Positions 1 to 53,101 of a stretch of DNA of 64,000 bases are shown piece after piece. Under the pieces are notes generated by a model. That model was not told the DNA's origin, searched no databases, and saw nothing but the letters and a program-made list of their open reading frames with translations. The position numbers and the translations under genes were made by a program. Position 1 is the first letter of the stretch, and each line of letters opens with the position of its first letter. Origin of the DNA: Schmidtea polychroa (Eukaryota); NCBI GenBank assembly GCA_044892525.1, contig CM097886.1, forward strand, positions 114,576,001-114,640,000. Direction: 5' to 3'.

Positions 1-2
1 AA

Positions 3-3000
3 ATGCCATTCGGACTGACCAACGCACCAGCATCGTTTCAAAGGTGTATGAACTTTGTCACTCATGGAATCAAACAATGTATGGTATATATTGATGATTT
101 GTTAATCTATTCAGCGACATTTGAACAACATCTGGAGGATATCCGAAATGTATTTATTCGATTACGACAATGGAAACTCAAGCTCAAACCGTCAAAATGC
201 GACTGGTCAAAGGAAAAGGTCACGTTTTTGGGACACATAGTGTCAGCTAAAGGAAAGGAGCCAGATCCAAGAAACATTGAGAAAATAAAAACATGTCCAG
301 CACCGAAAACTGTCACCCAAGTTCAGGAATTTCTAGGATTATGCGGATACTATCGCAAATTTATCAAAAATTATGCAGGAATTGCAAAACCAATCCAGGA
401 ATTAGTAAAGAAAGACATTTCGTTCATTTGGGGGAAGGAACAACAAGAGGCGTTTGAAACGCTGAGAGACAAACTAATCGAAGCACCTATCCTCGTACAC
501 CCAGATTTCAAGAAACCATTTCTATTAGCAACGGATGCAAGCGGGTACGCGGCAGGCGCGATTCTGGGACAATTAGACGACGAAGGTAAAGAAAGAGTAA
601 TTGGATATTACAGTCGAACATTCAAAAAGCACGAGAAGAACTATTCGGTAACAGAACGAGAAGCATTGGCTATAATACAAGCAATCAAACATTTTCGATA
701 TTTGTTATGGGGACATGAGATATGTATAACCACAGATCATCAACCATTAGTGTGGCTAGGGCAACATAAAGAAGCGTCCAGTAGACTAATGAGATGGGCA
801 ATGCAGCTACAAGAGTATTCACCGTTCATAAAATTCAAAGCGGGAAGAGCGAATGCAAACGCCGACTGTATGTCAAGGTTTATTTTTCCAGATTTGGTAG
901 ATCCAGAAATGCAACGTATATGCCTGATGGTAGCAGAAGACCTAGATTTCTGCCAATTACGAAAAGACCAACAAGAAGACGCAGAACTGAAACAAATTAT
1001 CGATTATGTAAAAACAGGAAAGACGGAGGTATATGCGAAAGACCAAAAATTAAAAGAACATATGGATAAACACCGACACCGATATATCATAGAGAAAGAT
1101 TGGTTGCTGATAATGGATGGGGAAAAACGATTAATGTGTATACCGGAAAACCGACGGAAAGAGTTACTAACGCAATACCACGATGGGAGATTGGGAGGAC
1201 ATATGTCATCAAAAAAGACGTTAGCAAGAATGAAACAAAAATATTTCTGGCCTACCCTAACGGAAGACGTAACCGAATGGGTGAAAAACTGCATAACCTG
1301 TGCAACAAGGAAAAACACTGGATCGAAATGGAAAGCACCTTTGACGCCAATGCCGGTACCAATAGAGCCGATGACAATGATATCAATGGATGTAGTTGGT
1401 CCATTGCCAGAATCGGATAAAGGAAACGTTTATATTTTAGTGATTACAGACTTTCTCACAAAATTTCCAGAAGCATTCGCGATGCCAGACCAAAAAGCTA
1501 AAACAATCGCAAAAATCTTGGTCGAAGAGATATGTTGCCGTTACGGGACACCGAAGCAAATCTTGACTGATCAAGGAACTAATTTTATGAGTGAAATAAT
1601 GAGTGAGGTAACCAATTACTTCAAAATCGCAAAATTGAGAACATCACCGTATCATCCTCAAACCAATGGGATGACGGAAAGATTTAATGGAACACTTATA
1701 CAAATGTTATCAAACTACGTCGACCGTCACCAACGAGATTGGGACGAATATATAAACCTATGTCTTATGGCGTACAGAATGTCGATTCACGCATCAACGA
1801 AAATGAGCCCATTCAAATTAATGTACGGAAGAGAATGTAACATGCCAATGGACCTGGAATACCAACCACCGATATCGCAATACATGGAGATAGATGATTA
1901 TGTTACGAAATTCAAGGAAAGAATGCAGGAGATTTGGGAAACTGCGGGATTAAACATCAAGTTCTACCAGGAAAGTTATAAAGATTTACACGATCGAAAG
2001 AAAAACGTGAAGCAACATACGTTTCAAACAGGCGATTGGGTGATGATCGAGACCCCAGAATTAATTCCCGGAACCACAAGAAAGTTACAACGGAACGGGA
2101 AAGGACCATACGAGATCTTGTTCGTAGGCGAGACCAATGTAAGAGTGAAATTGGTAAATAATCCATTCACCAGGCCAATATACGTAAACGTGGCACGATG
2201 CAAATCAATTCCAAAAACAGCCACCAGTCAACCAGAAGGCCGTACATTAACCACACGTTCGCAAACCTACAGAATGAACATGATGCAACAACTCGCAGAA
2301 CCTATCACTGGACGATTGGGCATACAACCATCGGAAGCTGAAAAAATCGTACGAGAGGTAAAGATAAAATTACCCGGATGGGCAAAAGATCGATTAGATT
2401 TCGAAATATTAGGAGGATTATTGACGATGATCGAAAATTATGCAAACAGAGAGAGAACACATCCGTTATTACGAGTAGTCAAAAGCCAATGGCCAATATT
2501 ATTTACAATAACAGATCATTATGGAGATACACCATTACACAAGCTCATGAAAGTAGGTAACAACGAGCAAATACTAGAAACAATAGAAGCATTTCACGAC
2601 TGCAAGAGATCAACAGAACAAGAAAATAACCAAGGTTACACACCATTAATGATAGCAGCAAACAGAGGCAAAACAAAAGACATAATAACCGCATTACTTA
2701 ATACTGGATCAAAAATAACTACACAAGACCACGATCGGAAAAACGCACTACATCATGCTATCGAAGGGAAAAGTACCGAAGCGTTCACGTCGTTGATGGA
2801 GCTACTATCATATGAGGATAATCGAGAAGTCGGAAACATGTATGATGGATTATTAACAGCGATCAAAGAGAAACTGACAACAATTACCGGAGTATTAATC
2901 ACTTGGAGAAACCCAATTAAAAATAATTATATGATCAACTTAAACGAAGCATTCACGAGAGGAGAGAACACGCTTATGAGAGAAGCTATGAGAGGACATC

Positions 3001-3803
3001 ATTTATTCGAAATCCCGAATCAATTACTAGAACGAGGAATAACCTTCACAAATCATAAGGATGAGCAGTTATTAAAAAAGCGAATTGACACATTCGAAAA
3101 ATCAATATTCCAATTCATTACTCAGGTACGAAATAAATATTGGGGAACGGTAAGTGTGTTATACATGATGGACACGATGAACAACATCCGCGAGAATTAC
3201 CTAGATATTATTCAAATACTTACCGCAGAGGAACGAATCAATAATCCAACCGGAATGAAAATGAGAATAAGGCATGGGAAATCAAGAGAACCAAAGTCGC
3301 AAACGAACCATAAAATCGCAAATAAAGTCATCGAAACAAAATCAATGAGTATAGATCAAGGAGCAATAATATGCAAAGCGAAAGAAGTGTTCTTTGAGGA
3401 AATGCTAGAGCTACCAGATGAAGTAATATTATCAGAAATAATAAAAGCCGTACACACATACGCAAGAGATCAAACCACGGGTTTAGATATCGGGAAAATC
3501 AAAACCTTCTTACCTAGAGCATTTACGATGGTAACAAAGGATTCCAGAACACCTCTACAACAAGCAATACTGGTTGCAAAAGAAAATAGAGCAATAACGA
3601 TCGTGAGAATCCTTAGAGATATGGGCGAGGGAACCAACACGAAAAATGAACAAGGCGAAACGGCCATGATGTATGCAGCTATAACGAAAATACACCCAAA
3701 AACACTCCACATACTACATCAATCAGGATTGAGACTAGACGAAAATCAAACGAAGGGAACTCCACATTGGACTGGGCAACCATACAGCCAAACTTGGAAA
3801 TGA
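3..3803 (+). CDS. pol: Gypsy Pol (RT C-terminal part, RNase H, integrase) fused in frame to ankyrin repeats; 5' incomplete
   Basis: MPFGLTNAPASFQR and YIDD (RT); TDAS...TDHQPL (RNase H); HHCC zinc finger (HDGRLGGH...CITC); D,D35E core (SMDVVGP, TDQG, NGMTERFN); GPY motif. Ankyrin consensus follows: GDTPLH, GYTPLMIAA, KNALHHAI, RTPLQQAI, GETAMMYAA. Confidence 0.95.
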   Translation: MPFGLTNAPASFQRCMNFVTHGIKQCMVYIDDLLIYSATFEQHLEDIRNVFIRLRQWKLKLKPSKCDWSKEKVTFLGHIVSAKGKEPDPRNIEKIKTCPAPKTVTQVQEFLGLCGYYRKFIKNYAGIAKPIQELVKKDISFIWGKEQQEAFETLRDKLIEAPILVHPDFKKPFLLATDASGYAAGAILGQLDDEGKERVIGYYSRTFKKHEKNYSVTEREALAIIQAIKHFRYLLWGHEICITTDHQPLVWLGQHKEASSRLMRWAMQLQEYSPFIKFKAGRANANADCMSRFIFPDLVDPEMQRICLMVAEDLDFCQLRKDQQEDAELKQIIDYVKTGKTEVYAKDQKLKEHMDKHRHRYIIEKDWLLIMDGEKRLMCIPENRRKELLTQYHDGRLGGHMSSKKTLARMKQKYFWPTLTEDVTEWVKNCITCATRKNTGSKWKAPLTPMPVPIEPMTMISMDVVGPLPESDKGNVYILVITDFLTKFPEAFAMPDQKAKTIAKILVEEICCRYGTPKQILTDQGTNFMSEIMSEVTNYFKIAKLRTSPYHPQTNGMTERFNGTLIQMLSNYVDRHQRDWDEYINLCLMAYRMSIHASTKMSPFKLMYGRECNMPMDLEYQPPISQYMEIDDYVTKFKERMQEIWETAGLNIKFYQESYKDLHDRKKNVKQHTFQTGDWVMIETPELIPGTTRKLQRNGKGPYEILFVGETNVRVKLVNNPFTRPIYVNVARCKSIPKTATSQPEGRTLTTRSQTYRMNMMQQLAEPITGRLGIQPSEAEKIVREVKIKLPGWAKDRLDFEILGGLLTMIENYANRERTHPLLRVVKSQWPILFTITDHYGDTPLHKLMKVGNNEQILETIEAFHDCKRSTEQENNQGYTPLMIAANRGKTKDIITALLNTGSKITTQDHDRKNALHHAIEGKSTEAFTSLMELLSYEDNREVGNMYDGLLTAIKEKLTTITGVLITWRNPIKNNYMINLNEAFTRGENTLMREAMRGHHLFEIPNQLLERGITFTNHKDEQLLKKRIDTFEKSIFQFITQVRNKYWGTVSVLYMMDTMNNIRENYLDIIQILTAEERINNPTGMKMRIRHGKSREPKSQTNHKIANKVIETKSMSIDQGAIICKAKEVFFEEMLELPDEVILSEIIKAVHTYARDQTTGLDIGKIKTFLPRAFTMVTKDSRTPLQQAILVAKENRAITIVRILRDMGEGTNTKNEQGETAMMYAAITKIHPKTLHILHQSGLRLDENQTKGTPHWTGQPYSQTWK

Positions 3804-5491
3804 TCAGATTTATTTGCAAAAATGCGACAAAAGAAGAAGTTGAAAATATATGCAAAAACACATCTCAATTTCAATGGAATACGGTACGGAAAAATCTAGA
3901 AGCAATGAAATTGTTATTAACATGGAGAGTACCACAAAATAATAAATATGCGATAAATATAAACGAATTTTACGAAAACGGAGAAAACGCGATGGTAAAG
4001 AATACCCTAACTAAAGGGGGGACACCTAAAATTATCTTAATAGTATTAAATAGAGAAGACCTCAAATTCACGCAAAATCAAAACGAGCAACAACGAATAG
4101 GAAAACATCGTCGTATTCAATTGAGAGAATTAGTCAAGGAATGGAATAGAAAGAGACAAGCTGCAACGGGTAGAAAAGAGTTTGAATTCGAAGCAAAGTT
4201 AGCAAGGAACAGAGTGTTAACAGCATATCGCAGATTATTGAACGATATAAATGTCGAGGACGACATTTTAAACGACAGCGGGGGAGATAAACACGATGAC
4301 AATGACGGAAAAGGCCGAAAGGAGGATAAAGGGAAAAGAGAACCGGAAGAGGATAAACCGGAAAACAAGGATTCGGGTACGAGAAGAGAGGGAAACAGCC
4401 CGGGAACCAAGACCAAAGAGGAGGAAAAACCGAATAATGGAAAACAGAGGGTATGCCTACCGTTCACTAACAAAGAAATAGAAACAAATATGATCTTAAT
4501 GATAATCATGCTAACCATGATAGAGTTAGTAACAGCTCATGGAGGGACGAGAACGATAAAAGAAATCAAAGAAGCGGAGAATCAAGATAGCAAAGAGGAA
4601 GAACTAAAACAAGAAAAGAAAAAGCAAGCACAAGAGCAGCAGTGGGATTTAAAGGAAGAATGGGGCCTAAAGGAAAGGTGCATACTAGGAAGATGTATGT
4701 CTAGAGCGTATCAGAGATTAGTACTGATAAATGAGGACACAGAACCAATAACAGAGGTAAGAATACAAGAAGCATACCGAAATCGAGACGGGAAAAGAAT
4801 AACGAACGTAAAGGGAAAAGAGGTGCACCTAGGAAAAGGAGGTGAAGTAGTAATAACGCAACTCCAACCAAGAAAAGAACACAAAGTCTGTATTTCAAGA
4901 TTAGGACCAGGTGAGAGATGCCATCAATATGTGACGCAGCAGCAGCCCCCAAAGGAATACACGGTTTGTATCTGGAGGAACGAATCAAAAAGGGAATGCC
5001 GACGATACCCGGGGAAAAGAGGGAAGAAAAGAAAAAACAACGACGAAAAGGACGAAGGAGGAAAACACAAGAAAACCGGCGAGGAAGCCCAGGACAACTA
5101 CGTTTCAGAAGAAGAGATGGAAAAAATACAAAAGATGGCAAAGGAGGGTATGAACGAGGAAATAGCAAGAATACGAGAGATGATGAAAGGAAATGGCAAA
5201 AGAGGAAACGAGAAAAGTACAGAAGCGATATCAACATTAACAAACAAGGAAAAACCAGAGAGTATAAGCGTGAAGCAGAAGATGTGGATCAGCGGGATAA
5301 TAATAACAGGGGCATTCCTAATCATAACGGGGGGAACAATAAAAATAATTAAAGATAAACGACATCGCGGAGAACTAGAGATGACCCGAATCAGAAATTT
5401 CCAACATCGAGTGAAACGACCAAGTGATATCAAACAAGAACAGTGGGTGGAGGCCTGGAACGCTCAGCGCCCTCCAAAACCCCGTATATAG
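3746..5491 (+). CDS. Probable frameshifted continuation of Pol-ANK: one more ankyrin repeat, charged linker, internal signal-peptide-like segment, Cys/FN3-like ectodomain, TM helix, short tail
   Basis: The frame begins SNEGNSTLDWATIQPNLEMIRF (ankyrin consensus) where ORF1 loses ankyrin similarity; one extra A at 3742-3745 would join the frames. Hydrophobic MILMIIMLTMIELVTAHG at ~4490-4540; motifs ITQLQPRKEHKVCI and VTQQQPPKEYTVCI; TM MWISGIIITGAFLIITGGTIKII at ~5282-5350. Confidence 0.7.
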   Translation, partial: SNEGNSTLDWATIQPNLEMIRFICKNATKEEVENICKNTSQFQWNTVRKNLEAMKLLLTWRVPQNNKYAININEFYENGENAMVKNTLTKGGTPKIILIVLNREDLKFTQNQNEQQRIGKHRRIQLRELVKEWNRKRQAATGRKEFEFEAKLARNRVLTAYRRLLNDINVEDDILNDSGGDKHDDNDGKGRKEDKGKREPEEDKPENKDSGTRREGNSPGTKTKEEEKPNNGKQRVCLPFTNKEIETNMILMIIMLTMIELVTAHGGTRTIKEIKEAENQDSKEEELKQEKKKQAQEQQWDLKEEWGLKERCILGRCMSRAYQRLVLINEDTEPITEVRIQEAYRNRDGKRITNVKGKEVHLGKGGEVVITQLQPRKEHKVCISRLGPGERCHQYVTQQQPPKEYTVCIWRNESKRECRRYPGKRGKKRKNNDEKDEGGKHKKTGEEAQDNYVSEEEMEKIQKMAKEGMNEEIARIREMMKGNGKRGNEKSTEAISTLTNKEKPESISVKQKMWISGIIITGAFLIITGGTIKIIKDKRHRGELEMTRIRNFQHRVKRPSDIKQEQWVEAWNAQRPPKPRI

Positions 5492-5651
5492 AAAGGGATA
5501 TGACTGTATATAATTGTAAAAAGTAAGTATATCTTATGTATATAACAGTACTATATCTTTATATAAGCGCGGTATCAATATTATAAAATAACGGGGATCA
5601 TAAAATGAAATTAAATTTAGATAAGAGTTGAAAAGTGTATATAAATTAAGA

Positions 5652-5960
5652 ATGGAGCAAGGAAGTAACGAAATGAACCACAACACAGTAACCGAAGAAT
5701 TATGGAAGCAACAATGTGCCGTATTAGCACAATTAGTGTCTAATTTGCAAGAACAAGGATTGACGATGCAAAAGAACCTAATCGAGAGTATGAACAGAGG
5801 ATTTAGTTATTTGAAGATAATTGAAGACCAGAGGTTAAAAATCGAACAAATGCAAAGAGAAATAGAGAGGATAACTCAATATAGCCGAAGACAGGAAATC
5901 GAATTGGACAGAATGATGGAGGAAGCAGAACAGACAGAAATAGAAGACTGGTCAGAATGA
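5652..5960 (+). CDS. Element cargo ORF, short coiled-coil protein of unknown function
   Basis: Open frame with heptad-like E/Q/L pattern, same A-rich codon bias as pol, bounded by AT-rich spacers; ATG preceded by AG. Confidence 0.6.
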   Translation: MEQGSNEMNHNTVTEELWKQQCAVLAQLVSNLQEQGLTMQKNLIESMNRGFSYLKIIEDQRLKIEQMQREIERITQYSRRQEIELDRMMEEAEQTEIEDWSE

Positions 5961-6096
5961 CTAATGAGTAGAGAGGAGGGCGGACACGAAGCCGACTCTT
6001 CCGAACCATAAACCAAACCTAGCTTAAAATGTAAATAATTGTAAATAAAATATCGAACCTGTATCGATAAGAACTATATGTATATATAATTATAGA

Positions 6097-7485
6097 ATGG
6101 ATAAACGACAAAGAGAAGAGTTCAGAGAGATTGTCGAACAAGTCCGAAAATCTACAACGATCAGAATACACAAACATGTTATGTGCGGAATATGTGAAAA
6201 GTTGTTAAAGGAACCTCACCAAACCCAATGTGGATGCAGATTATGTAAGGAATGCATCAGTGAAGCAATAAAGAATAGACCACAGTGGTTCCCGGTGTGT
6301 AAAGAGACACTAATATCGAGTTTAGAAGACACTAACGAGGATAAAGCCGCAGTGAAAGACATGTTAAACACCAATCTGGGATGTAAAAATACCCCATGCG
6401 AATGGAAAGGAGTAATATGGAAAGTAGTGCAACATATGGGAGAATGTATGTACAGAATCGGCCAGTGTGAAAGGTGCCATAAAACCATTCGAGCAAGCGA
6501 AGAAAAAGAGCATCAAAGCCAGTGTGAAGAGAGACTAGAAAGATGTAAACATTGTGGAGAAATAGATACGTGGAAAAATCTCACCAGCAAACATCACAAT
6601 GTCCAAGAGGAAAAGGTATGTGCAGAGTTCAGTGGGGAATGCCCGAACGGATGCGAGGAAGGGAGAATAATAAAAATAGCCCAACACCTAAAGGAATGTG
6701 AAAGGAAAAGAATGACATGTGCACTCGGTAAATGGGGCTGTCAGAAACTACTACACCGAGGAGAGTTACCACATCATTTAGTAGAAAATGCTTCAACCCA
6801 CGCAGAAATGTGGTCGACTGCGTTACAAGAAAGTGAAGAGAAAGTAAAACAAATGGAGATAGAGATAACATCGTTGAAAGCGTTAGTCAAAGAACTACTA
6901 GAAGAAAGAGAAGCGTTCGAAGAAGCCCGAGCTAACATAAAGATGCAAATAAATCGTATAAAAATCAGTAATAATCAGGCCAAGGAGCTACATCGGAAAA
7001 TACAGGAAATAAATCTAAATGAGATAACCCCAACAGCACCTTATATATGGAAGATAACGGGAGTGAAAGAAAGAATACGGAAAGCCAAAACTGGGGAAGA
7101 GACAAGAATAACAAGTCCTGCATTCCATTCTTGGAAAAATGGGTACAAGATGAAAATGAGGATATATACCAACGGAGATGGAGCCGGATTGAATACACAT
7201 TTTTCGATATTTTTTCTATTATGTAAAGGGGAACGTGACGAGGTAATAGAATGGCCATTCCAGGCAAAAATCGATATCACAATGATGAATGACCAAAGCA
7301 TCCACGAACAAAGCTTCAAAACAACGGGAACCCAGCTGTGTTACCGGCGACCTACTGATGAGGAAGGAGCAGCATCAGGAGCACCCACGTTCATCTTACA
7401 GCAGAAGGTGGAAGAGATGACAAAAAACGACACAATATATATAAAAATGACAGTGAGAAGGGAAGGGAAGGGTAGAACGGAGTAA
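6097..7485 (+). CDS. traf: Intronless TRAF-family protein (RING, TRAF zinc fingers, coiled coil, MATH) inside the retrotransposon
   Basis: RING CGIC...CGCRLCKEC...FPVC; several C/H zinc fingers; coiled coil; MATH domain YIWKI...SPAF...GYKMKMRIYTNGDG...THFSIFF...EWPF...GAPTFI. 462 aa, uninterrupted. Confidence 0.95.
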   Translation: MDKRQREEFREIVEQVRKSTTIRIHKHVMCGICEKLLKEPHQTQCGCRLCKECISEAIKNRPQWFPVCKETLISSLEDTNEDKAAVKDMLNTNLGCKNTPCEWKGVIWKVVQHMGECMYRIGQCERCHKTIRASEEKEHQSQCEERLERCKHCGEIDTWKNLTSKHHNVQEEKVCAEFSGECPNGCEEGRIIKIAQHLKECERKRMTCALGKWGCQKLLHRGELPHHLVENASTHAEMWSTALQESEEKVKQMEIEITSLKALVKELLEEREAFEEARANIKMQINRIKISNNQAKELHRKIQEINLNEITPTAPYIWKITGVKERIRKAKTGEETRITSPAFHSWKNGYKMKMRIYTNGDGAGLNTHFSIFFLLCKGERDEVIEWPFQAKIDITMMNDQSIHEQSFKTTGTQLCYRRPTDEEGAASGAPTFILQQKVEEMTKNDTIYIKMTVRREGKGRTE

Positions 7486-7677
7486 CCCATCGAATAATGT
7501 TGTATATAATAACCTGTATATATCGGCGTATATAACCAATAAAATATTATATAATAATAGTATGAAAAACCCTAAATACGAAAACCCAAAAATGATGCGA
7601 AAATTTCCGAAGAACCAGTAACTAATGAATAAAATTTTTCCATAATAAAAAGATTAATCTATATCAATGATTTAGAA

Positions 7678-8733
7678 ATGACACAAGAGAGAATAACCGA
7701 AACTACGATAGCCCCAACCAATACCCACAAGACACAAATTCCCCGAGAATATAACGAAAAATGGAACAAAGTAATGTTCCAACTAACTAACCTCACCCGA
7801 AACTACATCAAAGAAGCTAGAGAAGATGAGAACAGTAAATATCAATGGCTAATCCACAATTTAAGAGAGGAAGCAGAAGCATGTAAAAGAGCATCAAAAT
7901 GGGATTCATTAGAAAATACCCGCCAAGAAGCACACAGCCACTACTTAAAGCAGCTAGTGCAGGAAGCGAGAAAGAGGCTCACTGACGAAAACGCAAAACG
8001 CGAAGCGGAAAAGCAAATAGAAGGAAGGAAAATGATGCATTTATTGGCAGAGGCCAGAAAATGGAAAAGACAAAATAGTGAAATGAAAAAAGAGATGAAA
8101 GAATTGCCCATGAGACTCGGATATGAAAGCGAACAGGGCAAATGGGAGGAAAATTTAATAATAAAGGAAGAACTGAAACGGTTGAGAAAGGTCGCCACCC
8201 GAAGCCAAACATGGCAGATGAAGGCCATGGAGTTCGAGCGACATTTGGCAATGAAATGCGACATAAGAGAGCACGAGAATGCCGCAATGGAGGAGATGAT
8301 AACCCAACAAGCAGGACGGGTTTTGGAATTAGTAAATCAGGTCGTAGAGATGAAACGAGACCTCAATGGATTACAGGGATCACTAGAACAAAGAAACATG
8401 GTCCTAGCTGGAAAAAACAAAAAATTAGAAAACGAGAGGAAAATGTATGCCGAAAATATCAAAAACTTGGAAATAGAAATTGAAAAATGGAAGGGCGACG
8501 AGAAAATCAAGGCCCTAGATAGACAAATAGAGATGAAAGACGAAGAGACAAGGTATCTCACCTACCTGCTCGACGAAGAGCTGAATATCACTCGAGCTCT
8601 AAGAGACGAAGTTAATGAATTGAGAGCTCAAATCCCCCAATATTACCTACCTTATGACCCTATTGCGATACAGTTGCATCCAGCGGTCGATAGTGATGAA
8701 GGTTATGTGGGACAGGAGGAAACCTTCGTATAA
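7678..8733 (+). CDS. Element cargo ORF, long coiled-coil protein
   Basis: 351-aa open frame, E/K/R/L-rich heptads, element-type codon bias, TTTAG just before the ATG. Confidence 0.75.
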   Translation: MTQERITETTIAPTNTHKTQIPREYNEKWNKVMFQLTNLTRNYIKEAREDENSKYQWLIHNLREEAEACKRASKWDSLENTRQEAHSHYLKQLVQEARKRLTDENAKREAEKQIEGRKMMHLLAEARKWKRQNSEMKKEMKELPMRLGYESEQGKWEENLIIKEELKRLRKVATRSQTWQMKAMEFERHLAMKCDIREHENAAMEEMITQQAGRVLELVNQVVEMKRDLNGLQGSLEQRNMVLAGKNKKLENERKMYAENIKNLEIEIEKWKGDEKIKALDRQIEMKDEETRYLTYLLDEELNITRALRDEVNELRAQIPQYYLPYDPIAIQLHPAVDSDEGYVGQEETFV

Positions 8734-8904
8734 AGGTGAATAAAAAGATAAAAACAAAAAAAATCGGGACGTATATCCCAAACAAAAAAAAATTAAAGTA
8801 TTGTAAAAGTATTCAAGGGATTGTAACCCAAACTATTAAATTTTATATAAATGTATAAGTATAAGTCGTACTATAGCGCACCATTAACTGTACATATTAT
8901 AGAT

Positions 8905-9594
8905 ATGAAAATCGAGGAAATGATAGAAATCACGAGTGACGTGGAAGAAGGAGAAATTGTAACAGAAACAACAGAAACACAAACGCTAGAAGCAGAGTTG
9001 CGAGCAGAGAAGTGTGAAAACGAGAGACTGGTAAACAAATACATAGAAGATCGAAAAATAATAAAGATACTAAAGAAAGAATGCAGAGTGCTAGGGGAAG
9101 TAAAAAGAGAAACAGAAGAGGAAAACGAATGGCTGCAAGAACAACGAAAACGAGGGAGAAATTGGGAGAAGATTGCGGAAGAATTATGGCAAGAAAGGGC
9201 CAGTAGAAAGGCAGACGAAGTGATTAGCGATTATTGGAAAACCGAGGCACGGAAACACCAAGAAAGTTTGAAGGAGTTACAACTCCAACTGCACCAAAAA
9301 CAAAAGGAATGCGAGATAATGAAAAGAATGAACAGCAAATACCACGAAATCGACGACGGAGAAGACGAGGAAAGGGGAAATGATTTCTTACAAATACTAA
9401 ACCATAAAAACCTGGAAAGAGCAACGCAGGAAATAAAAGTGTTAAAAGGGAAAATAAAGTTCCTAGAACAACAGATAGACGAAAGAGATAAGCAACTAGA
9501 AGTACTGCCAGAATTGAGAAAACGGGTAATAAAAGCGGAAACGGAAGTGATGAGAGCGTCTCAGAAAGCCCGTAAAAAGAAATCCCGACCATAA
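8905..9594 (+). CDS. Element cargo ORF, coiled-coil protein with basic C-terminus
   Basis: Open frame (track start 8851; ATG 8905 after TATAG preferred), E/K-rich heptads, ends RKKKSRP. Confidence 0.7.
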   Translation: MKIEEMIEITSDVEEGEIVTETTETQTLEAELRAEKCENERLVNKYIEDRKIIKILKKECRVLGEVKRETEEENEWLQEQRKRGRNWEKIAEELWQERASRKADEVISDYWKTEARKHQESLKELQLQLHQKQKECEIMKRMNSKYHEIDDGEDEERGNDFLQILNHKNLERATQEIKVLKGKIKFLEQQIDERDKQLEVLPELRKRVIKAETEVMRASQKARKKKSRP

Positions 9595-9649
9595 ATTAAA
9601 AAGGGATAATTGATGTAAATAAATGTATATAAAATGTTCGCATATTAGT

Positions 9650-10303
9650 ATGTGGCCGGAAGCAACCCTGATGACCCTAATAATGATAACAATAAACGGA
9701 ATGCCCATGCGGCAGTCAGCCCCAAACCCCTGGGAGAACCCCGAGAAACAGCAAAGCCGATTAATCAAACTGAAAAATGAAAGAAAACCCTCCAACAATA
9801 TCCCGAAACAATGCTGGAACAAAGCCGTCTGGCAAAAGACCCAAAGACAACTGAATCTGCAATCTCAAAGAATCGAACAACTTGAAACCCTCCTACATGA
9901 ACAAACCACCCAACAGTCTCTGAAAGAAACCCTCGTAAAGAAAGAAATAAAAGAAAGTCAAGCCCTATTCTATGTTACCATTAGTGAAACCATCCTCATC
10001 TGCGCGCTAATCATCTGGAAGACATATGATATCTATCGAGCATGGAACAGAACCCAACCACTATCCGAGAGACCCAAAAGAAAGAACCTACGATTCCGAA
10101 ACGTACATAAACAAGCAGTACATTGTCAACAACCGGACCCACTCGACCAAATACAACAAAATCTGTCTTCTAATCAAATACCCGTTACAATCCAGCTCTC
10201 CACAGTAACAACTTCAACCAACCCTTCAAGCCAGAATCCCAGAGATCCCCAAAAGGTAGTTAACCGAAACAGTAGTAACATGTCGAACATTGAAATCCCG
10301 TGA
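9650..10303 (+). CDS. Element cargo ORF, predicted type I membrane protein (signal peptide, coiled-coil ectodomain, TM, S/T/P/Q tail)
   Basis: MWPEATLMTLIMITING N-terminus; TM ALFYVTISETILICALIIW; low-complexity tail. Confidence 0.65.
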   Translation: MWPEATLMTLIMITINGMPMRQSAPNPWENPEKQQSRLIKLKNERKPSNNIPKQCWNKAVWQKTQRQLNLQSQRIEQLETLLHEQTTQQSLKETLVKKEIKESQALFYVTISETILICALIIWKTYDIYRAWNRTQPLSERPKRKNLRFRNVHKQAVHCQQPDPLDQIQQNLSSNQIPVTIQLSTVTTSTNPSSQNPRDPQKVVNRNSSNMSNIEIP

Positions 10304-10854
10304 CAGTAATTTGATGTATATAATTCCGGTCACCCTAAGTGGCCACTGCTTGCTTATATTTGTCTTATTATCTGTTTAATTAAAGTATTAGTCAGTTAAT
10401 TTGTTTTTATGTCTGTACGTATTTTGATTGTGGAAGTTTTGTGTTATAACAACAGAGGTATGATTAGAATGTATGTCATTATGCGAATTGCGGGACGCAA
10501 TTTTGATGGGTCCCCGAGTGATTTGTTGGGCTGAATCGAAGGGTAGCTGGGAAATTAGGTCGAATTTAACTAAAGTAAAAATAAGAAATAAAATAAATAG
10601 ATTGACGAATAAAATAGAATAGAACATAAGAAAAACAATAATTAGAAATAAGAATTAAAACAAAAAAAAATATGAAAATAAGAAAAATTAAAATAGGACA
10701 ATAGAATGACAGAAAATAACGCAAAATATAATAAATAATAAGGAAATTAAGGAAAATAAATAAAAACATAATTTTAATAAAGAAAATAAGAAGAAATAAC
10801 TCTAAAACAAGGAAAATAAATTAAATTAATAAAATTAAGCGGTACTCAATTCTG

Positions 10855-10920
10855 ATTGGTCCGCGCAAACAAAAAATTAATATATAAGCAGGCATTAAAA
10901 TCATAATAATTACAGTTAAT
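10855..10920 (+). promoter_or_regulatory. LTR promoter: inverted CCAAT (ATTGG 10855-10859), TATA (TATATAAG 10881-10888), Inr-like CAGTT at ~10913
   Basis: ATTGG and TATATAAG occur in the same order in the LTRs at 24823-24860 (-) and 33575-33600 (-). Confidence 0.75.
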
Positions 10921-10936
10921 CTAACCACCTCAATAG

Positions 10937-10983
10937 GTAAGTAAAGTTTAAAATAATCACAGTTAATCTAACCACCTCAATAG
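10937..10983 (+). other. Predicted 47-nt LTR mini-intron (GTAAGT...CTAAC...ATAG) whose last 25 nt duplicate exon 1
   Basis: Direct repeat ACAGTTAATCTAACCACCTCAATAG at 10912-10936 and 10959-10983; the first copy is followed by GTAAGT. Confidence 0.7.
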
Positions 10984-13215
10984 ATCCATTCTACGACGAA
11001 ACCGCAATTAAACAATCAATCCACAGCAACTCACGAGGACTATTCCGGAATCCAAGAAATTTCAGCTGAATCTAGATAATTTCGAACATTTATTACTTCG
11101 ACACAGTACCCCTTTTCGACTCAGCCTATACCTCTATTAAACACTCGGTAAGGATCTTTTGATTTCATAATTTGAATTTTAAAGTAATAGTTATGCATAT
11201 GATTTAATTATAATTTTAATTTAAAGAACTTGTTTTCTTTTCGTTTGATTTCGAATACTTGGTGTAATTTAACGATTTAGTATTTAACAATAAATGATTT
11301 GCTATGAATGATTGATTTCTAGGAATTATTGACTTTTATGAACTGTTTTAATGAGTTATTATTTAATGCCATTCAAATTTTCGAGAAACGTGGCGTTGAT
11401 ATACTCTAGTGTCATGGTGTGAGGTGCCTTCGGGAGCTCCACCGGTGGGCCTAGGGTATTTCAATCACGCAGCTGATTCGGGCCGTAATGTGGGGGCTTC
11501 CTCACGGGTCCGTCGCTGAAGGTGCGACTAAATCCTATAGGAAAATGTTGCCAGAAAATTGGTAGTCGTATAGCGATGGAAAATAGAGATGTAGGAAGAA
11601 ACGTTCAGAGAGTTTTTATGTATTCGCGCAGTGATTGAGGGTGTCACACTATCGTCTCAAGATATCGTTTCTACTAAGCCCAAATTTCCTCTATCGCTCT
11701 AAAGCTCTATGTAGGTTGCTCATCGAGAGTCGTTCAAATGCTATAGGTGACATATCTTCGATGCTCGTATGTTTCACTCGAAATTTATACCTACTATGTT
11801 TTATGGCCTTCCGTGTTATTATTTTCCTCGTCTACGTGTTCTCTCAAAGATGAAGCTGCAGGGGATTACAGAAAATAAGTAGTCTCGGATGAGCGTTAGA
11901 ATTCCATGAACAAGTTGTCTCGCATAAAATTTTGAATTACGTAAAACGGGTTACTTCAACTATTTTTGAATTGTATAAAATGATTTACTTCAATTGATTT
12001 TAGAATTATATAAAGGGATTAACTTCCACAAATTTTTCTAATTACATAAACCGGTTAGTGCCAAATAATCTCAAGAGTAAAACGAAATCAAATCGAGTCA
12101 AAAAATATATTTTTTTTTACAAACCAATCTAACATGATAATCCTTACCTAGTAAATATAAATTACCCGTGTTTCATGGAGTTGATAATCCAGCGAGGATA
12201 GGTAGGAAATCTCCAAAATATCGGGAACGGATCAATAAACCGCATTTGAGGAGTTGAGAAGTTCCCCCTGGGGGGCAAATTATATCCAACTCTTGCGATA
12301 CCGAGAATCATAATTTTTCCAGCATTTCCGTGAGAATTAGTATGACATCATCATGAGCAAGGAAATGTGAGCATCTGTGCAGTGGGTTGATCGAGATAGT
12401 AGCCAGAGAACATGCCAGCATGTAAACAGTTGAGGGCATCAGTTAGTCATTAGGAGTGGAATTAAGTATGAGAAATAAAAACTTGCATACGTCACCCGTT
12501 TTCAGACACACTACAGTAGCTAATCACGGTGTGTAGATTCACACCGACTTGTACTCATAACAAACCAGACCGGACGTGTCAGCTGGAATTTTTGGGTTAT
12601 CAAATTAAATCACTCGCAGTCATTAGATTCCCACTGGTCGGAACTAATAGCCAACTGTCAGACTGATTTTGTCTACTTAGTAGGATTAATTTAGTTATTA
12701 TCTCATGTTGAATAATTTGTCGCCTATCATAAATAAATAATTAAAAATTTTTTTTTAATGTCTTCCCGTTCATCATAAATGAACTAATTAAGAATAATTT
12801 ATGGATTTCTATTCACCCTAAATAATTAATCTAAAATTAATCGACCTACGTACAGGATACATTCATCGAAACGATTTGTTAGGAAAAGTCGGCAATGTAA
12901 TTCAACTCTCTTCAAACGTTAATTACTAACTTCAAGCGATTTAGATAACCGTAGTTTCCTCGACCTAGAATTCCTCTCACCAGTAGTAATACCTCTCCTT
13001 ACTTGTGCAAAATCGTGCTTGACTGATTTATTTTCTTATAATTAATGACCCAAAGGGAACGAGGACCCATAGCGCAGTTGAATTTCTTTGGCTGATACAC
13101 CCATTCTTGTCTATGAAACCAACTATGATCAGTAAAATATAAATGTGACCAGACGACGACCTTCTAATTGATTTGATTTGTTGTTCATTTCCATCTTTTC
13201 TTGCAGTCACCCAAG

Positions 13216-14064
13216 ATGTTACCCAATTCCAAGACCATTCTCAGACCTTGTTTCTCTTGTTCAGACAAGAATTCAATCATCAAGGATCTGCAGGCCCAAA
13301 TCGGAAAGTACAAGAGAAAAATAGACGAGTTAGAGGGGACATGGTTTAGTCCTACCCAGATGAAAGAGGCTCAGAAGAAGCTGCACCGCAGCGAGCACTG
13401 TCGAGATGCGCTAATTTCCGAAAGTCGGGCGCAGAGAAGCCTAATAAAGGAGCAGTCGGAGGCGCTGCACAAGTTATACGTCCAAGCAGCAACCACTAGG
13501 AGAATCGCGAAGATCCCAATTAATGAAGCCAGTAATCTTTTTCCAGCGCACCACGAGATCTCGGGCGGGCCTTCATCTCCACCTGGGAAGTCCTGCCATG
13601 GGTGCGTGGAGACCGAGCTCTCTCCCAGTGGTCCAGACGTTGTATTCACCGGAACTAATAAAGTGCAGCCAAACACCGCATCGTCCTCAATCGTGCAAAC
13701 CCCAACAGCTTCAAAACCTAAACGTCGGCAACTGTCGCGCGCCGAACGAAAACGAAAGCAACGAGAGCGGGCTTCCATCAAACGGATTCTACCATCAACC
13801 GTCACCCCAGTCGACGGCAACAGCAATCCAATAGTAGTCGATCTAACGACCGGAATCTCAGGGCGAGTCATCTCCGCCGCCGGGGTAACATGGGAAGAAA
13901 ACGCCGCCGAATTCTTTGATTTAAACGAGTTACTCGCCGACTCGGAGTGGGAAAAATGGGAATTGCTCCGTAAACTGGCCTCATCTTCTAGAGAGACCTG
14001 GACATCTTCTGACATCATTGTTTACCCTTGTGTTTTCCCTATTCTTAGGAATTTTGGTATATAA
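13216..14064 (+). CDS. LTR-encoded 282-aa protein (CxxC + coiled coil, Arg/Lys-rich motif, acidic-aromatic C-terminus), predicted spliced
   Basis: Intact ORF. Polypyrimidine-CAG acceptor at 13204-13206, donor GGTAAG at 11147-11152, AATAAA at 14096-14101; all are conserved in the solo LTR. Homologues at 21762-22505 and 30791-31646. Confidence 0.8.
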   Translation: MLPNSKTILRPCFSCSDKNSIIKDLQAQIGKYKRKIDELEGTWFSPTQMKEAQKKLHRSEHCRDALISESRAQRSLIKEQSEALHKLYVQAATTRRIAKIPINEASNLFPAHHEISGGPSSPPGKSCHGCVETELSPSGPDVVFTGTNKVQPNTASSSIVQTPTASKPKRRQLSRAERKRKQRERASIKRILPSTVTPVDGNSNPIVVDLTTGISGRVISAAGVTWEENAAEFFDLNELLADSEWEKWELLRKLASSSRETWTSSDIIVYPCVFPILRNFGI

Positions 14065-14520
14065 GTGTTCAATGTACTTGTATAATAATTCTGACAATAA
14101 ACCATTCTCGTCTATATATGTGTTTTTGTTTATCTTAAAATAGTCGATCTGAAATTGGTGAATAACATTGAGAGTCGTAGAAAATGAGGAGCATTAGTCA
14201 GTTGGCAACCCCAGCTAGGAACCTTGCGATGGGGTGATGGAATGATTAGACGTAAGTCCTTCTATCGGCAGTCAGGGTTGGGAAGTCGAGGCCTCAGTAA
14301 GGAGTAGTCCGAAGGAGCTGGCTCACCTGCTTACTGGCGTCTCGCCGGCATAGCACAGTTCCAACGTGAAGCAATTCACGGGTGCTATGTTGGAATGTAG
14401 GTTATGTGCGGGTCCTGCTTGGCGATGACAAAACGAAGGACGAGCGAAATCGATGTGGGCATTCATCCTCTAGACTGAAAGCTGCACTAAAAGGGGTCAT
14501 CCGAGTAGCTACCCGCAACA

Positions 14521-18175: not shown

Positions 18176-18616
18176 AAATTTTATTCAATAAATTTTAGAC
18201 TCAAAAACTTGTCTTTCTTATTTTTGTTATTTAAAGAAATTTCCATTTTCCTTTTTTCAATAAAAATATTTTTTTAAAATTTAACAAACTTTCTAATTAA
18301 ATCTCTAAGAATCTATCAACTTCCTCATAACTTGTTTATAGTAATTGATAAAATTCATTTTTATAATTAAAACAGAAATTTTATAAAATATACATAACTG
18401 ATATCTAAAATAGAGTATAAATTAAAATAATTCGATTTTGTTAATATGTATCAATAATATAAACTATCACATGTGGGATTGTTGCTCATTTTTACTATTA
18501 ATTCTTCAAAAATACTAATTTAATAGGTTAAATTTCATTATTTTAGCATAATAATAATTAATCTAAATTTTTATGCATTTCAGCAGGTTGAAAAAAATTT
18601 CCCAGTCTAAATATCA

Positions 18617-19216
18617 ATGGCATATTCCAGATCTTTTGGAAACGTTTGGACACTTTTAAAAGAAAACGCATTTCAACAAGTCGACATATCTGATGATATT
18701 TTGTGCTTAATTTGTAAGAAAATTATGGTCAATTCACAAAATGGACCATGTGGTTGCAGATACTGTTTGGAATGCATAACAAATCATCTAAATGAAAACA
18801 ATCATCAATGCCCTGGCACTACAGAACTTTGTGAAAATGAACAATTAACTCTTGATAATTTGCAGACTGATAATGCTATTAATGTGAAAATTTCAAGAAC
18901 TGTCGTAAATTGTCCATTTCAAAATTGCCATTATCAAAATGAACTTAAACTTATTGGAGACCACATAATGGCGTGTAATTTCCGTGAAATTAATTGCCCA
19001 CTTACCGAAATCGGATGTAAAAAAATGAATTTGACCAGTGATTATATGCTAAATCATTTTAAATCGGAAATCGTTTCTCATTCAACATTATTTTTGGAAT
19101 GTTTCGATAATATGAAAAATGAAATTGAATCTCAATCAAAAATTCTAAAAGAAATGAAAGAAGAAAACCAATTAATGAATGAGAAAATTTTAGCACTTGA
19201 ACAAGCAAATCAATCG
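18617..19216 (+). CDS. traf: Host TRAF gene, coding exon 1 (RING, zinc finger, start of coiled coil)
   Basis: CLIC...CGCRYCLEC...CPG RING; CPFQNC and CPLTEIGC fingers; phase-0 GTAAAT donor at 19217; upstream TTTCAGCAG acceptor near 18588. Confidence 0.85.
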
Positions 19217-19675
19217 GTAAATTTTAATTAGACACATTTTCATTCGTTAAAATTTTAATAATTTTATTTTGTAAATGCTAACTAATTTTTGAGTGATCTA
19301 TTTAAAGCATGTAAAAATTGGTTTAAACGAGATATTTAAAATTTATATAATTAAATAATTATTCAATAAAAATAATTTTAAATAAAAATTTATAATTTTA
19401 TTTAAACAAACAATTGTTCCATAATATTTGTGTGATATTGGAATTTTTTTGATTTATTTTAAAATTTAAATAAGGGAAAAATGCAATTTTAATCAAATGC
19501 AATATATTACATTTATATTTACTATTTTTTTAAATATTCATATTTAATTATATTTATTTACATTTAATTTGTAAGATTTTTAATTTCCTTATTTTAAATA
19601 TGTAATTATTTGAGTTTCTAGTTTTTAATTGAGAATGTTTTGTGGGCTTCTTCTTACATATAGCTTTTAACTCTG

Positions 19676-20547: not shown

Positions 20548-21198
20548 GGTCTTTTAATTTTATCGATTTTATTATTTTTATTCTTTTTTTATCAGTCATT
20601 TATTTTCTAATTTAATAAATATTTCATTTTATTGCTTTTTTTTGATAATTCATTTTTCAATTGTCTAAATAATTATATTTCTGCAAATAATTCCTTAATT
20701 TGTTTTAATTTTACTTTTAAATTGTTTCTTTAATCTACGTTCTTCTGTTTTCTCCTCATCTTATTTTCTTGAATTTTTCGTTTAATTCGATCATATTTTA
20801 TTTTTTCCTGTTTTCTTTTTTCTCATTTTTGTGTTATTTTATTTCAATTTCAACTTTTCGATTCTTATTTTTTTCTGATTCTTGCTCAGCACATTGGAAA
20901 TTAGAGTAATTATCTTATAGTTTATCCTCTGGCGGTCAAATATCCGTTATTGCACCAGGGTAATGTATTATTCTGTGTGTCGTAGACTTTGGACTCCTGT
21001 AATTCGTGCAATTCATCCGACTTTAGCTGTCTATTTCACTAAATCGTACAAGATTGGATAGATCTACTTCTTTACCTGTAGATTCGTTTGTACCTGTAGT
21101 AAATGCATCTGAATTCATTTGGTGACTAAGTGGATCGTGAAAACTCGCTTGTATGTGTCAGCTCATTACACAAAAAATTTTTGAGATACGCTTCCTAT

Positions 21199-24100
21199 TG
21201 TTGGCGGGTAGCTACTCGGATGACCTTCTTTAGTACCGCTTTTAGTCTAGAGGATGAATGCCCCCATCAATTACACTTGTCTTTATCCCGGTCATCGCTG
21301 AGCAGGGCCCGTACATAACCTATACTCCAACATAGCACCCGTGAATCGCTTCACGTTGGAACTGTGCTATGTCGGCGAGACGCCAGTAAGCAGGTGAGCC
21401 ATCTCCTTCGGACTACTCCTTACTGAGGCCTCGACTTCCTAACCCTGACTGCCGATAGAAGGACTTACGTCTTTTATCCCGTCACCTATCGCCATGTTTC
21501 TAACTGGGATTGCCAATTGACTAATGCTCCTATTTTTTGCGACTCTCAATGCTATTTACCAATTTCGAATCAACTGTCTTAAAATAAACACAAAAAAAAA
21601 ACGTATGCAGACAAAAATGGTTTATTGTGAGAATTTTTATACACATATATTACAAACTTATACCACCCAATTTACAAGAACAAGGAAACACAAAGATAGA
21701 AAATGTTATCAGTAGATGTTCAAGTCCCTCTAGAGGATGAAGCCATTTTACGGGGAAGTTCTCATTTTTCCCACTCCGAGTCGGCGAGTAACTCGTTTAA
21801 ATCGAAGAATTCGGCGGCATTTTCTTCCCATGACACCCCGGTAGCGGAGATGACTCGCCCTGCGATTCCGGTTGTTAGATCGACGACTGCTGAATTACTG
21901 CTGCCCTCGACTGGGGTGGCGATTGATGGTAAAATCTGTTTGACGGAAGCCCGCTCGCGTTGCTTTCGTTTTCGTTCGGCGCGTGACAATTGCCGACGTT
22001 TAGGTTTTGAAGCGGTCGGTATTTGCACTCTTGAGGAAGATGCGGTGCTTGACGGTACCTTACTAGTTCCGGTGAATACGACGTCTTGACTTCTGGGAGA
22101 GAGCTCGGTCTCCACGCACCCATGGCAGGACTTTCCGACTGGAGATGAAGACCCGCCAGAGATATCATGATGTGCTGGGAAAAGATTACTGGCTTCATTA
22201 ATTGGGATCTTCGCGATCTTCCTTGTAGTTGCTGCCTGGACGTATGATTTGTGTAGCGCCTCCGACTGCTCTTTTATTAGGCTCCTCTGCGCCCGACTCT
22301 CCGAAATTAACGCGTCTCGACAGTGCTCGCTTCGGTGCAGCTTCTTCTGAGCCTCTTTCATCTGGGTGGGACTAAACCGTGTCCCCTCTAACTCATCTAT
22401 TTTTCTTTTATACTTCCCGATTTGGGCCTGGAGATCTTTGATGATCGAATTCTTGTCGGAGCAAGAAAAACAAGGTCTGAGAATGGTTGTGGAATTGGGC
22501 AACATTTTGAGTGACTGTGAAGAAAAATGAAAAATGAAGATAGATTAAATCAACGAGAGTGTCGCCATCTGATCACACTCATACTCTACTGATCATAGAC
22601 AAAATTATGGGTTTACCGGTCAACAAGATTCTACTGCACGATGGATCCTCATACCTTTTGGGTCTTTAATTATAAGAAGATAAATCGATCAAGCCAGATT
22701 TCGCACAAGGAAAGGGAGACATTACCACTAGTGAGAGAAATTCTCGGTCGATGAAAATTATTATTTATTTAATCCGCTTGAAGTCACTAATTCACGTTTG
22801 CAGAGAATCGGGTGAAATTGTTGATTTTTCCCCCCAAATGAGTGATTTCGATGCGTGTATCATGTACCGGGGTCGATTAAGTACTTACGGTTAAGGGGGG
22901 GTCCATAATTTCCTTTAAATAGTTCGTTTATGATGAACGGAAAGTTATTTAATTTTTCGATTATTTATTTGTGATAACGGAAAATTGTATCGATGTGAGA
23001 AAGTAGCAGAGCAAATCCTACTAAGTAGATAAGCAAAATATCAGCCTGATGGTTGACTATCCATCCCGAGCGATGAAATCTAATGCCGGTCAGTGGTTTA
23101 ATTAGATAACGGAAAACTCCATCTGACACGTTCGGCCTGATTTTCTATGGGTAAAGGTTAGTGTAACTTTACACACTGCGATTGGCTGCTATAGTGTGTT
23201 TGAACATGTGTGACGCATGCGAGTTGCGATTTCACACACTTATCTCTACTCGTAACTACTAATGGAGGTTCTTCAATGTTTGCATGCTGGCATATTCTCT
23301 GGTTACTATCTACTGCATAATTGCTCACAATTCCCCTGCACATGCTGATGGCCTAATAATTCTCACGGAAACATTGGAAGAAATTACGATTCTCTATGTC
23401 GTAAATGTTGGATATAATTTGCTCCAAGGGTGGATTTCTTTTTAACCTCTCAAATGCGATTTATCGATCTGTTCCTGAAATTCTGGAGATTTTCTACCTA
23501 TCCCCGCTGGATTTCCAACTTCATGAAATACGGGAATTTTACATTTAAGTAACAAGACTCATCAGGCTAACTTAAAAAAAAATATATTTTTCTTGGCTCG
23601 ACTTAGTTGCATTTTTCATTTCAAATTATTTGATGCCAATCATTTATGTAATTACGAAAATTAGTTGAAGTAAATATTTTTATATAATTCTAAAAAATTA
23701 ATTGAAGTAAATTATTTTATGTAATTCAAAATTTTATTTGGAACAAACTCGTTTTATGAAATTCTAATAATTATCTGAAATAAATCATTTTACGTGGTTC
23801 TACAATCCATTCGTAAACAGTCATTTTGAATAATCCTAATAATTATCTGAAGCAATCTACTTTGAGCTTCCTTGCAACTATGTCTTTAAGAGAACTTTTA
23901 GATGAAAGAAATAACAGTTCAAAAGGTCATAGGCCGAAAATTTGTAGGAGTAGGTTCCGAGCGCAAAGCATGAACATCGAAGATATATCACATATAGCCC
24001 CACTAATGTCTGAACGATTGTTTGACACACAACTTACATCGATGATAGAGAAAATTTGGCTTAGTAGAAACGATATCTGGAGACGATGGTGTGACGCCCT

Positions 24101-46150: not shown

Positions 46151-46157
46151 ATAATTA

Positions 46158-53052: not shown

Positions 53053-53101
53053 GTAAAATTGATAATTTATCACAATTCTCTGGTCTGATATCAATGTTCA
53101 G

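Follow-up and report, generated by a model that had tools for sequence, protein, structure and literature searches.

How far does the pol polyprotein of a Ty3/gypsy retrotransposon extend beyond its integrase, and can it end in a membrane protein? This question is raised by a locus of Schmidtea polychroa (contig CM097886.1 of assembly GCA_044892525.1, positions 114,576,001 to 114,640,000, forward strand), which we analysed as one stretch of 64,000 nt, referred to here as the window. A sequence-only reading had interpreted its first 5491 nt as the coding region of a polyprotein in which the integrase is followed by ankyrin repeats, a signal peptide, a fibronectin type III (FN3)-like ectodomain and a transmembrane (TM) helix, the frame being interrupted once. 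We consider it probable, though well short of certain, that the window contains the 3' half of a large multi-gene Ty3/gypsy (Metaviridae-type) element resembling Burro, a giant gypsy element of planarians, and that a polyprotein with ankyrins and a Pol-fused membrane tail was broken once, by accident, in this copy; this grading applies to the explanation as a whole.

The Pol frame, its two ankyrin units and the frame break

The window opens inside the reverse transcriptase (RT), with gag and protease lying outside it, and at least 10.5 kb of internal region are found 3' of mid-RT. The first open reading frame (ORF1, 3..3803 on the + strand, 1266 aa, open at its 5' end) encodes the end of RT and RNase H (3..818; Pfam RVT_1, E 4e-18; RT_RNaseH, E 3e-39), an integrase consisting of H2C2 zinc finger, rve core and C-terminal domain (1140..2237; Integrase_H2C2, E 3e-21; rve, E 5e-13) and then, without a stop, ankyrin repeats. 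RT, RNase H and integrase stand in the domain order of Metaviridae (Ty3/gypsy) pol. The in-frame linker behind the integrase (2238..2405, +), a candidate site of protease cleavage, contains no stop codon, and the frame stayed open across 2201-2520 in 0.075% of base shuffles. The coding strand of 1-10,000 is strongly A-rich. In the A-rich coding stretches between 3 and 10300 (~9.5 kb) we found no runs of 7 or more A, compared with a mean of 11 and a minimum of 4 in 300 codon shuffles; the coding sequence of this element apparently avoids long A runs.

Pfam places Ank_2 in three stretches of ORF1 (E 3e-16), and five repeats are recognisable with an ankyrin profile at aa 837, 874, 908, 1177 and 1214 (scores 8-34; null maximum -6.1), confirming that the integrase frame runs into at least five ankyrin repeats without a stop. 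A degenerate extra repeat lies at aa 983 (score 4.9). From nt 3743 the repeats continue in a second stop-to-stop frame (ORF2, 3650..5491, 613 aa, without Pfam match), in which the next one scores 6.1, while the ORF1 frame gives -12.7 at this place (null maximum -6.1). Rather than one run, the ankyrins form two duplicated tandem units of ~220 aa. Unit A (2406..3068, +; ORF1 aa 802-1022), delimited by Pfam, alignment and profile, holds three clear repeats and degenerate ones; unit B (3426..4090, +), its tandem duplicate, is read in the ORF1 frame up to ~3741 and in the ORF2 frame from ~3743. With an X set at the break, unit A is colinear with ORF1 aa 1142-1247 joined to ORF2 aa 32-147 (score 158), each half alone reaching 89 and 95; in 500 shuffles the mean was 36 and the maximum 68. 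As the two units align straight across the break, the stretch 3-5491 descends from one gene.

A break scan with X and the frame-wise ankyrin profile place a single frameshift in the interval 3728..3749 (+); the ORF1 frame ends at a stop codon at 3801-3803. The scan has a shallow peak (166 at 3737-3740; 131-158 elsewhere), and according to the profile the ORF1 frame is the better one up to ~3743 (-3.1 vs -15.5; null 99th percentile -5.0), the ORF2 frame from there on. The sequence-only reading had traced the break to one missing A in the run at 3742-3745. This run does lie inside the interval, and a repeat begins at 3743 in the other frame, but the exact base is not pinned. In total, 159 runs of 4-6 A sit in open frames, so that the A run at the break is not special, and all other frames over ~9.5 kb are open. 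An assembly prone to homopolymer errors, which we considered as a source of the break, is not indicated in view of these 159 A4-A6 runs, even though a single error may still have occurred.

A polyprotein split once was thus borne out by the alignment of the ankyrin units across the break. The suggestion that the split could be a programmed ribosomal frameshift, which would determine how much Pol-ankyrin is made relative to the complete product that includes the membrane protein, did not hold up equally well, and we regard it as very improbable. There is a canonical slippery heptamer in the right frame at 3695, one of only two in the ORF1 frame (the other at 3479), the peak of the break scan is merely ~10 points above this site, and from 3752 onwards the RNA is predicted to form a moderately stable fold (-12.9; background minimum -14.6). 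However, the interval 3728-3749 itself contains no canonical heptamer, and the RNA behind the heptamer at 3695 is no more stable than the background (-4.8 vs -6.0 +/- 3.0, pseudoknots being outside the model), i.e. an XXXYYYZ heptamer at the shift together with a downstream stimulator, as expected for a programmed -1 frameshift, was not found. A shift at 3695 would also replace an ankyrin helix encoded in ORF1 (-3.1 vs -15.5), the unshifted product would end within an ankyrin unit, and the relatives described below lack a frame change in this region. As no frameshift signal fits the break, programmed slippage is less likely than an accidental lesion or one error of assembly, and judging from the sequence one of these two most likely caused the break.

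The membrane-protein module and its closest relatives

Downstream of unit B, a basic segment and a charged low-complexity linker (4091..4489, +) continue in frame and do not carry the spacer signature of the downstream genes (see below). The probability of an open frame is 0.0002 for 4091-4489 and 0.022 for 4262-4489. Then follow, all on the + strand, an internal signal-peptide-like segment with Met as its first residue (4490..4537), recognised by hydropathy and, by eye, by small residues at -3/-1 of a plausible cleavage site; a beta-rich ectodomain segment with six Cys (4670..5008), FN3-like by motif and position only and all-beta in a low-confidence model; a charged stalk, delimited from the sequence (5012..5284); and a TM helix (~5285-5350) with basic cytoplasmic tail and stop (5285..5491). 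Both the signal-peptide-like segment and the TM helix had been predicted, and both are present as hydrophobic segments (4490-4546, Kyte-Doolittle (KD) hydropathy 1.79; 5270-5350, KD 1.94), ORF1 having none above 1.3.

To place this module we scored 8000 candidates of 586-1868 aa in a search with the integrase and the first ankyrins; 198 of them matched, and 120 of these were listed. Each of the 120 has both the rve and the H2C2 domain of integrases, and those that bear a name are pol proteins of the gypsy type. None of the 120 has an ankyrin Pfam domain; some carry PF00385, which we take to be the chromo domain, and others carry other C-terminal modules. The four best matches (P0166, P0167, P0168 and P0169) stand apart with 48-61% identity, the value for the integrase part (1140-2237) being 48-59%, and together with the window they form a clade with a support of 100/100 in a tree of 46 rows (the window plus those 45 of the 120 listed relatives whose integrases scored best, the other 75 being left out). 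P0169 breaks off inside the integrase and is uninformative on the tail. In the three closest integrases with a readable C-terminus (P0166, P0167 and P0168; 48-55% identity), the integrase is followed in frame, after a linker of ~25-100 residues, by a signal-peptide-like segment and an ectodomain, and in P0167 and P0168 a strong TM helix and a basic tail form the C-terminus; the end of the cytoplasmic tail of P0167 presumably fits a class I PDZ-binding motif. Among the 120 listed relatives, a 13-residue hydrophobic peak above 2.0 in the tail is found only in P0166, P0167 and P0168, and strong TM helices only in P0167 and P0168; the other 116 show one marginal hydrophobic stretch (P0240).

The tails of P0166 and P0167 are homologous (score 127; shuffle maximum 89), and a profile of both, run against PDB sequences, gave five matches, all of them FN3 proteins and each with an E of ~1. 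For P0167 the model of the tail leads to FN3 (Z 9.6, rmsd 2.3, 81 aligned residues for CD148; nearly all 50 rows are FN3-type), with a Foldseek E of 4e-5 and a Pfam fn3 E of 0.21. These results support a predicted tandem FN3 in the tail of P0167 and, by homology, in that of P0166. With in-frame tails in three relatives and ectodomains that differ between them, the layout of Pol, signal segment, ectodomain and TM helix is a trait of the clade, and the ectodomain is exchangeable. The ankyrin cassette is, on sequence comparison, an addition present only in the window among the clade members.

Does the ectodomain of the window itself belong to the FN3 type? Two motifs of the form T.Q.QP.KE..VCI, at nt 4856 and 4934, resemble what we take to be the FN3 E-F strand signature, and an FN3-like module had been proposed from them. 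The motifs are real and make up a tandem 26-aa duplication (4853-4930 and 4931-5008) with a Cys-x9/10-Cys pattern (score 60; 0 of 5000 shuffles were as good), but the FN3 fold was not confirmed for this domain. We obtained no FN3 match for it in Pfam, with phmmer against PDB (three queries), in the Atlas or with our own HMM; hhalign against A2 gave a probability of 0.1, and there was no similarity to the FN3 profile of the relatives, 73 of 420 scored shuffles being as good. Structure prediction, which had been proposed as a check, produced an all-beta single-sequence AlphaFold model with a pLDDT of 36, and two fold searches gave no FN3; as the model is too poor, the absence of FN3 from their lists carries no weight. 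Judged by motif, strand pattern and position, we would put an FN3 fold of the window domain at roughly even chances, leaning slightly in its favour. The alternative, that an unrelated module of disulfide-linked beta-hairpin repeats was swapped in, is compatible with the rest of our explanation, and we consider it a serious possibility that falls somewhat short of even chances: the missing similarity to the relatives' FN3 profile, the tandem Cys-x9/10-Cys duplication and the different Cys-rich ectodomain of P0168 argue for such a module, whereas the all-beta prediction, a plausible (by eye) B-C-C'-E-F-G spacing and FN3 at the same position in the sister clade argue for FN3.

Could the protein be the fusogenic Env of the element? 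It is encoded behind the integrase, where the env genes of Metaviridae lie (PMC7879559), and signal segment, ectodomain and TM helix are all present. Against this, neither ORF2 nor 4490-5488 matches a fusogen family in Pfam, while a true fusion-glycoprotein ORF in the window (35059-33728, - strand), which served as positive control, matches PF24664 with an E of 1e-37. Furthermore, the folded part comprises merely ~110 aa, and in Burro, an element of >30 kb in total, the fusogen-type env sits between gag and pol according to excerpts of PMC6431247, i.e. outside this window. We therefore hold a fusogenic Env to be extremely unlikely, and as the surface protein has no fusogen match, its 'env position' should not be read as 'Env'. 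One polyprotein with a surface protein in the env position is, as such, well supported by the ankyrin alignment across the break and by the in-frame tails of the sister elements. We infer that the membrane protein would be an accessory receptor-like surface protein for attachment or as a decoy, and not a fusogen.

Downstream genes, expression of the membrane protein and surroundings

Five separate ORFs between AT-rich spacers follow downstream (5492..10540, +), as assigned by Pfam, hydropathy and motif counts. One is a TRAF-like gene with RING, Cys/His-rich middle and MATH (6097-7485; MATH/TRAF E 4e-25), three are charged, probably coiled-coil ORFs without family match (5652-5960, 7678-8733 and 8905-9594), and the last encodes a small membrane protein with hydrophobic N-terminus and a TM helix at 9962-10018, without Pfam match (9650-10303). 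The TRAF gene is merely 23% similar to a TRAF-like fragment at 18611-19231. Within 1-10540 all 12 occurrences of the motif TGTA[ACT]ATA fall into the six spacers that follow stop codons and add up to 952 bp; the mean over 2000 dinucleotide shuffles was 0.52 and the maximum 4, and the other strand of the spacers contains none. We assume this motif to be the Pumilio element. All five downstream ATGs have a T-rich AG 1-2 nt upstream, a pattern that was derived from these very sites and has one more match at 10464. These AGs would be splice or trans-splice acceptors, and the downstream genes possibly follow an operon-like or subgenomic-mRNA grammar that may be Pumilio-regulated.

The membrane protein could likewise be made from its own spliced subgenomic mRNA starting at Met 4490, as is probable for the five downstream genes, the in-frame link to pol then being an evolutionary relic or a route of minor use. 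In favour of this possibility, gypsy elements commonly have spliced env mRNAs, the signal segment begins with Met in both the window and P0166 (distance 2), and the AG at 4480-4481 has a CTAAC-like word upstream. However, Met 4490 is preceded by a purine-rich open linker, and its AG, 8 nt away, is weaker than those at the downstream ATGs: the 30 nt before it contain 7 T and 18 A+T, compared with 9-12 T and 20-26 A+T at the five other sites. The TGTA motif does not occur in 3803-4490. Moreover, all four informative clade members are open from the integrase to the signal segment (the window with the exception of its one break), and two relatives have no nearby Met, with none within 129 (P0167) and 68 (P0168) residues before the signal segment. 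As the spacer signature of the downstream genes is absent before 4490, release from the polyprotein is the favoured route, with the spliced start, which we think unlikely, as its main rival.

The downstream genes are followed by a 4.0-kb repeat resembling a long terminal repeat (LTR) of the form TGTTG...CAACA (10524..14520, +), probably the 3' LTR, which is delimited by a 78% identical inverted copy at 21196-25184; this copy is a solo LTR with the 4-bp target-site duplication ATAG. The repeat at 10524-14520 lacks a target-site duplication, as expected for a 3' LTR, and has no clear polypurine tract upstream. Metaviridae are described as having flanking LTRs, a polypurine tract before the 3' LTR and a primer-binding site after the 5' LTR (PMC7879559). 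The 4-kb LTR family carries an ORF of its own (13177-14064), which looks intact in both copies. The element is surrounded by AT-rich DNA that is interrupted by N gaps and contains further transposon-like ORFs as well as pieces of TRAF genes; beyond the element, TRAF/MATH fragments are located at 18611-19231, 53066-53656 and 57306-57416. The ORF at 35059-33728 (-) encodes a fusion glycoprotein of the Monjiviricetes type within another A-rich element fragment and has an AG directly before its ATG. By eye, the ORFs at 37727-38311, 45079-46164, 46302-47354 and 54080-54562 resemble remnants of Maverick polB, Penelope RT/GIY-YIG, pogo and piggyBac. A search for structured RNA families in 1-26000 gave one chance-level Rfam match only.

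A comparison with other copies had also been suggested, and no second copy turned up by tblastn in the window, in protein sets or in genome contigs. Within the 64-kb window, the tblastn matches were confined to the internal duplication and to pieces of gypsy pol unrelated to this element. In the scan of genome contigs the integrase identity was at most 37% among the long matches listed. Several bacterial contigs from metagenome-assembled genomes among L001-L022 hold eukaryotic gypsy pol, which is probably contamination.

Proposed function and comparison with known systems

According to the explanation that we prefer, the pol frame would belong to a small clade whose integrase leads, without a change of frame, to an internal signal peptide, a swappable ectodomain and a TM anchor. 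In the lineage of the window, an ankyrin cassette would have entered between integrase and signal peptide and would then have been duplicated, and the second ankyrin unit would be interrupted in the present copy by a single accidental frameshift, due either to mutation or to an error of assembly. We propose that the polyprotein would be synthesised in the cytosol, that the internal signal would draw the ribosome to the endoplasmic reticulum (ER), and that signal peptidase would free a type I membrane protein of ~320 aa; Pol-ankyrin would stay on the cytosolic side and would probably be cut further by the protease of the element.

As to the ankyrins, the best 60 of 292 PDB ankyrin matches include no IkB/NF-kB entries and consist of generic ankyrins only. 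With such generic relatives, the IkB-like role and the integration targeting put forward in the sequence-only reading would be candidate functions at most. The 16 matches of the ankyrin region among proteins of 2217-5000 aa are all generic ankyrin proteins; in a search of 50% clusters (13,160 matches) the best 150 are generic multi-ankyrin proteins, none of them matching pol, though weaker true relatives could be hidden below. By analogy, the most likely binding partners of the ankyrins would be signalling proteins of the host, on which they would act jointly with the TRAF encoded nearby; this might dampen immune or cell-death responses. Alternatively, they might remain on the mature integrase and steer integration like the chromodomains of other gypsy integrases. 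The direct in-frame fusion behind the C-terminal domain of the integrase would fit this idea, as would PF00385 or other C-terminal modules in some of the listed relatives, but a low-complexity linker lies in between and the cargo context (TRAF; BIR and BCL2 in Burro) points to signalling. As the same position leads to a membrane anchor in the relatives, a cut after the integrase would be needed anyway, and we judge steering of integration by the ankyrins to be improbable.

Several observations weigh against the explanation of a Pol-ankyrin-membrane polyprotein. The function of the ankyrins is argued by analogy only. ORF2 had no relatives among 6227 candidates of 314-1001 aa, none of the 79 loci in the scan of genome contigs matched ANK, ORF2 or TRAF, and as ankyrin Pfam domains are missing from all 120 listed relatives, the chain of integrase, ankyrins, signal segment and TM helix depends on one broken copy. 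The signal segment has its own Met and an AG 8 nt upstream, which makes a spliced start possible. Among the relatives, the signal segment of P0167 stays under the hydropathy threshold used and was judged by eye, P0166 ends inside the second repeat and has no TM helix, and the P0167 model has a mean pLDDT of 35 (40-52 in the matching repeat); the ectodomain of P0168 is Cys-rich and unalignable to that of P0167, i.e. the ectodomain can be something other than FN3. The window ectodomain, finally, has no detectable sequence link to the FN3 of the relatives, it lacks what we take to be the usual Trp and first Tyr of the FN3 signature, it contains a single sequon among 249 aa, and the second of its two motifs stands as an orphan hairpin.

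Going further, the data might point to an undescribed Ty3/gypsy clade that displays a captured, exchangeable receptor-like ectodomain (FN3 or other) on the surface of cells or particles by means of a Pol-fused signal peptide, ectodomain and TM helix, which would tether Pol to the ER. The window member would then be a signalling kit composed of a receptor mimic, a doubled ankyrin adaptor and a TRAF ligase, its downstream genes having splice-acceptor-like AGs and Pumilio-type spacers. We offer this wider picture tentatively, as possible rather than probable. If true, the element would be a retrotransposon equipped with the components of an entire receptor-TRAF-IkB-like pathway. The usual view is that LTR retrotransposons have captured viral fusogens as surface proteins; a pol that ends in a non-fusogen type I membrane protein with swappable ectodomains would suggest another route to cell-to-cell spread or host manipulation, and the Pol-fused membrane tail would give a concrete reason for an ER-tethered Pol. 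For giant Burro-like elements, the membrane protein, the ankyrin pair and TRAF would be additional cargo that can be tested, and the clear spacer signature would help to map their subgenomic mRNAs.

Within the literature searched, the clade-conserved Pol-fused receptor-like membrane protein appears to be new; an FN3-TM tail on gypsy pol is undescribed there, although the C-terminus of Burro may already be annotated in primary papers or figures. P0166, P0167 and P0168 share with the window the integrase clade and the in-frame signal segment and ectodomain, and P0167 and P0168 also the TM helix and basic tail; unlike the window, they have no ankyrins, a short linker and ectodomains that are unalignable to that of the window. 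Ankyrin proteins are also known from viruses unrelated to the window element, e.g. the vankyrins of polydnaviruses and the ANK of the planarian nidovirus PSCNV. The latter resembles our case in that an ankyrin was captured into a viral polyprotein, and excerpts of PMC6211748 present it as a proposed modulator of host interaction.

Single Gag-Pol-Env polyproteins occur in Belpaoviridae, e.g. in Atlas virus, with a surface glycoprotein that has a C-terminal TM helix and shares one frame with pol, as in the window; in contrast to the window, they belong to a different family and have a true class II fusogen, and an ankyrin cassette is not described in the excerpts of PMC9094657 on which this comparison draws. 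Errantiviruses and rotifer LTR elements with ORF3 resemble the window in having membrane or accessory ORFs 3' of the integrase, but these are separate ORFs for F-type or gB-type fusogens or small TM proteins (excerpts of PMC13524379 and PMC5408684, in which the words 'ankyrin' and 'fibronectin' do not occur).

The ankyrin-in-polyprotein aspect is already known from Burro/GYPSM1, and in the literature searched only PMC6431247, again in excerpts, links ankyrins with a gypsy polyprotein. In these excerpts the element has ankyrin, MATH/TRAF, BIR and BCL2 in a polyprotein of ~5,000 aa. Like the window, it thus combines gypsy pol and ankyrin repeats in a very long polyprotein, and it further shares MATH/TRAF cargo (as a separate accessory ORF in one species), several accessory ORFs, multi-kb LTRs and, in one species, decayed frameshifted copies. 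Unlike the window, the excerpted description includes no signal peptide-FN3-TM tail after the integrase, and TRAF, which is downstream in the window, is upstream in the described Dugesia element (PMC6431247). No sequence named Burro is among the listed matches of the ankyrin-region or integrase searches. By analogy of its described features, the window element nevertheless looks like Burro, and one Burro-like giant element is reported to aid stem-cell survival via a captured IAP (excerpts of PMC13465017, citing another paper).

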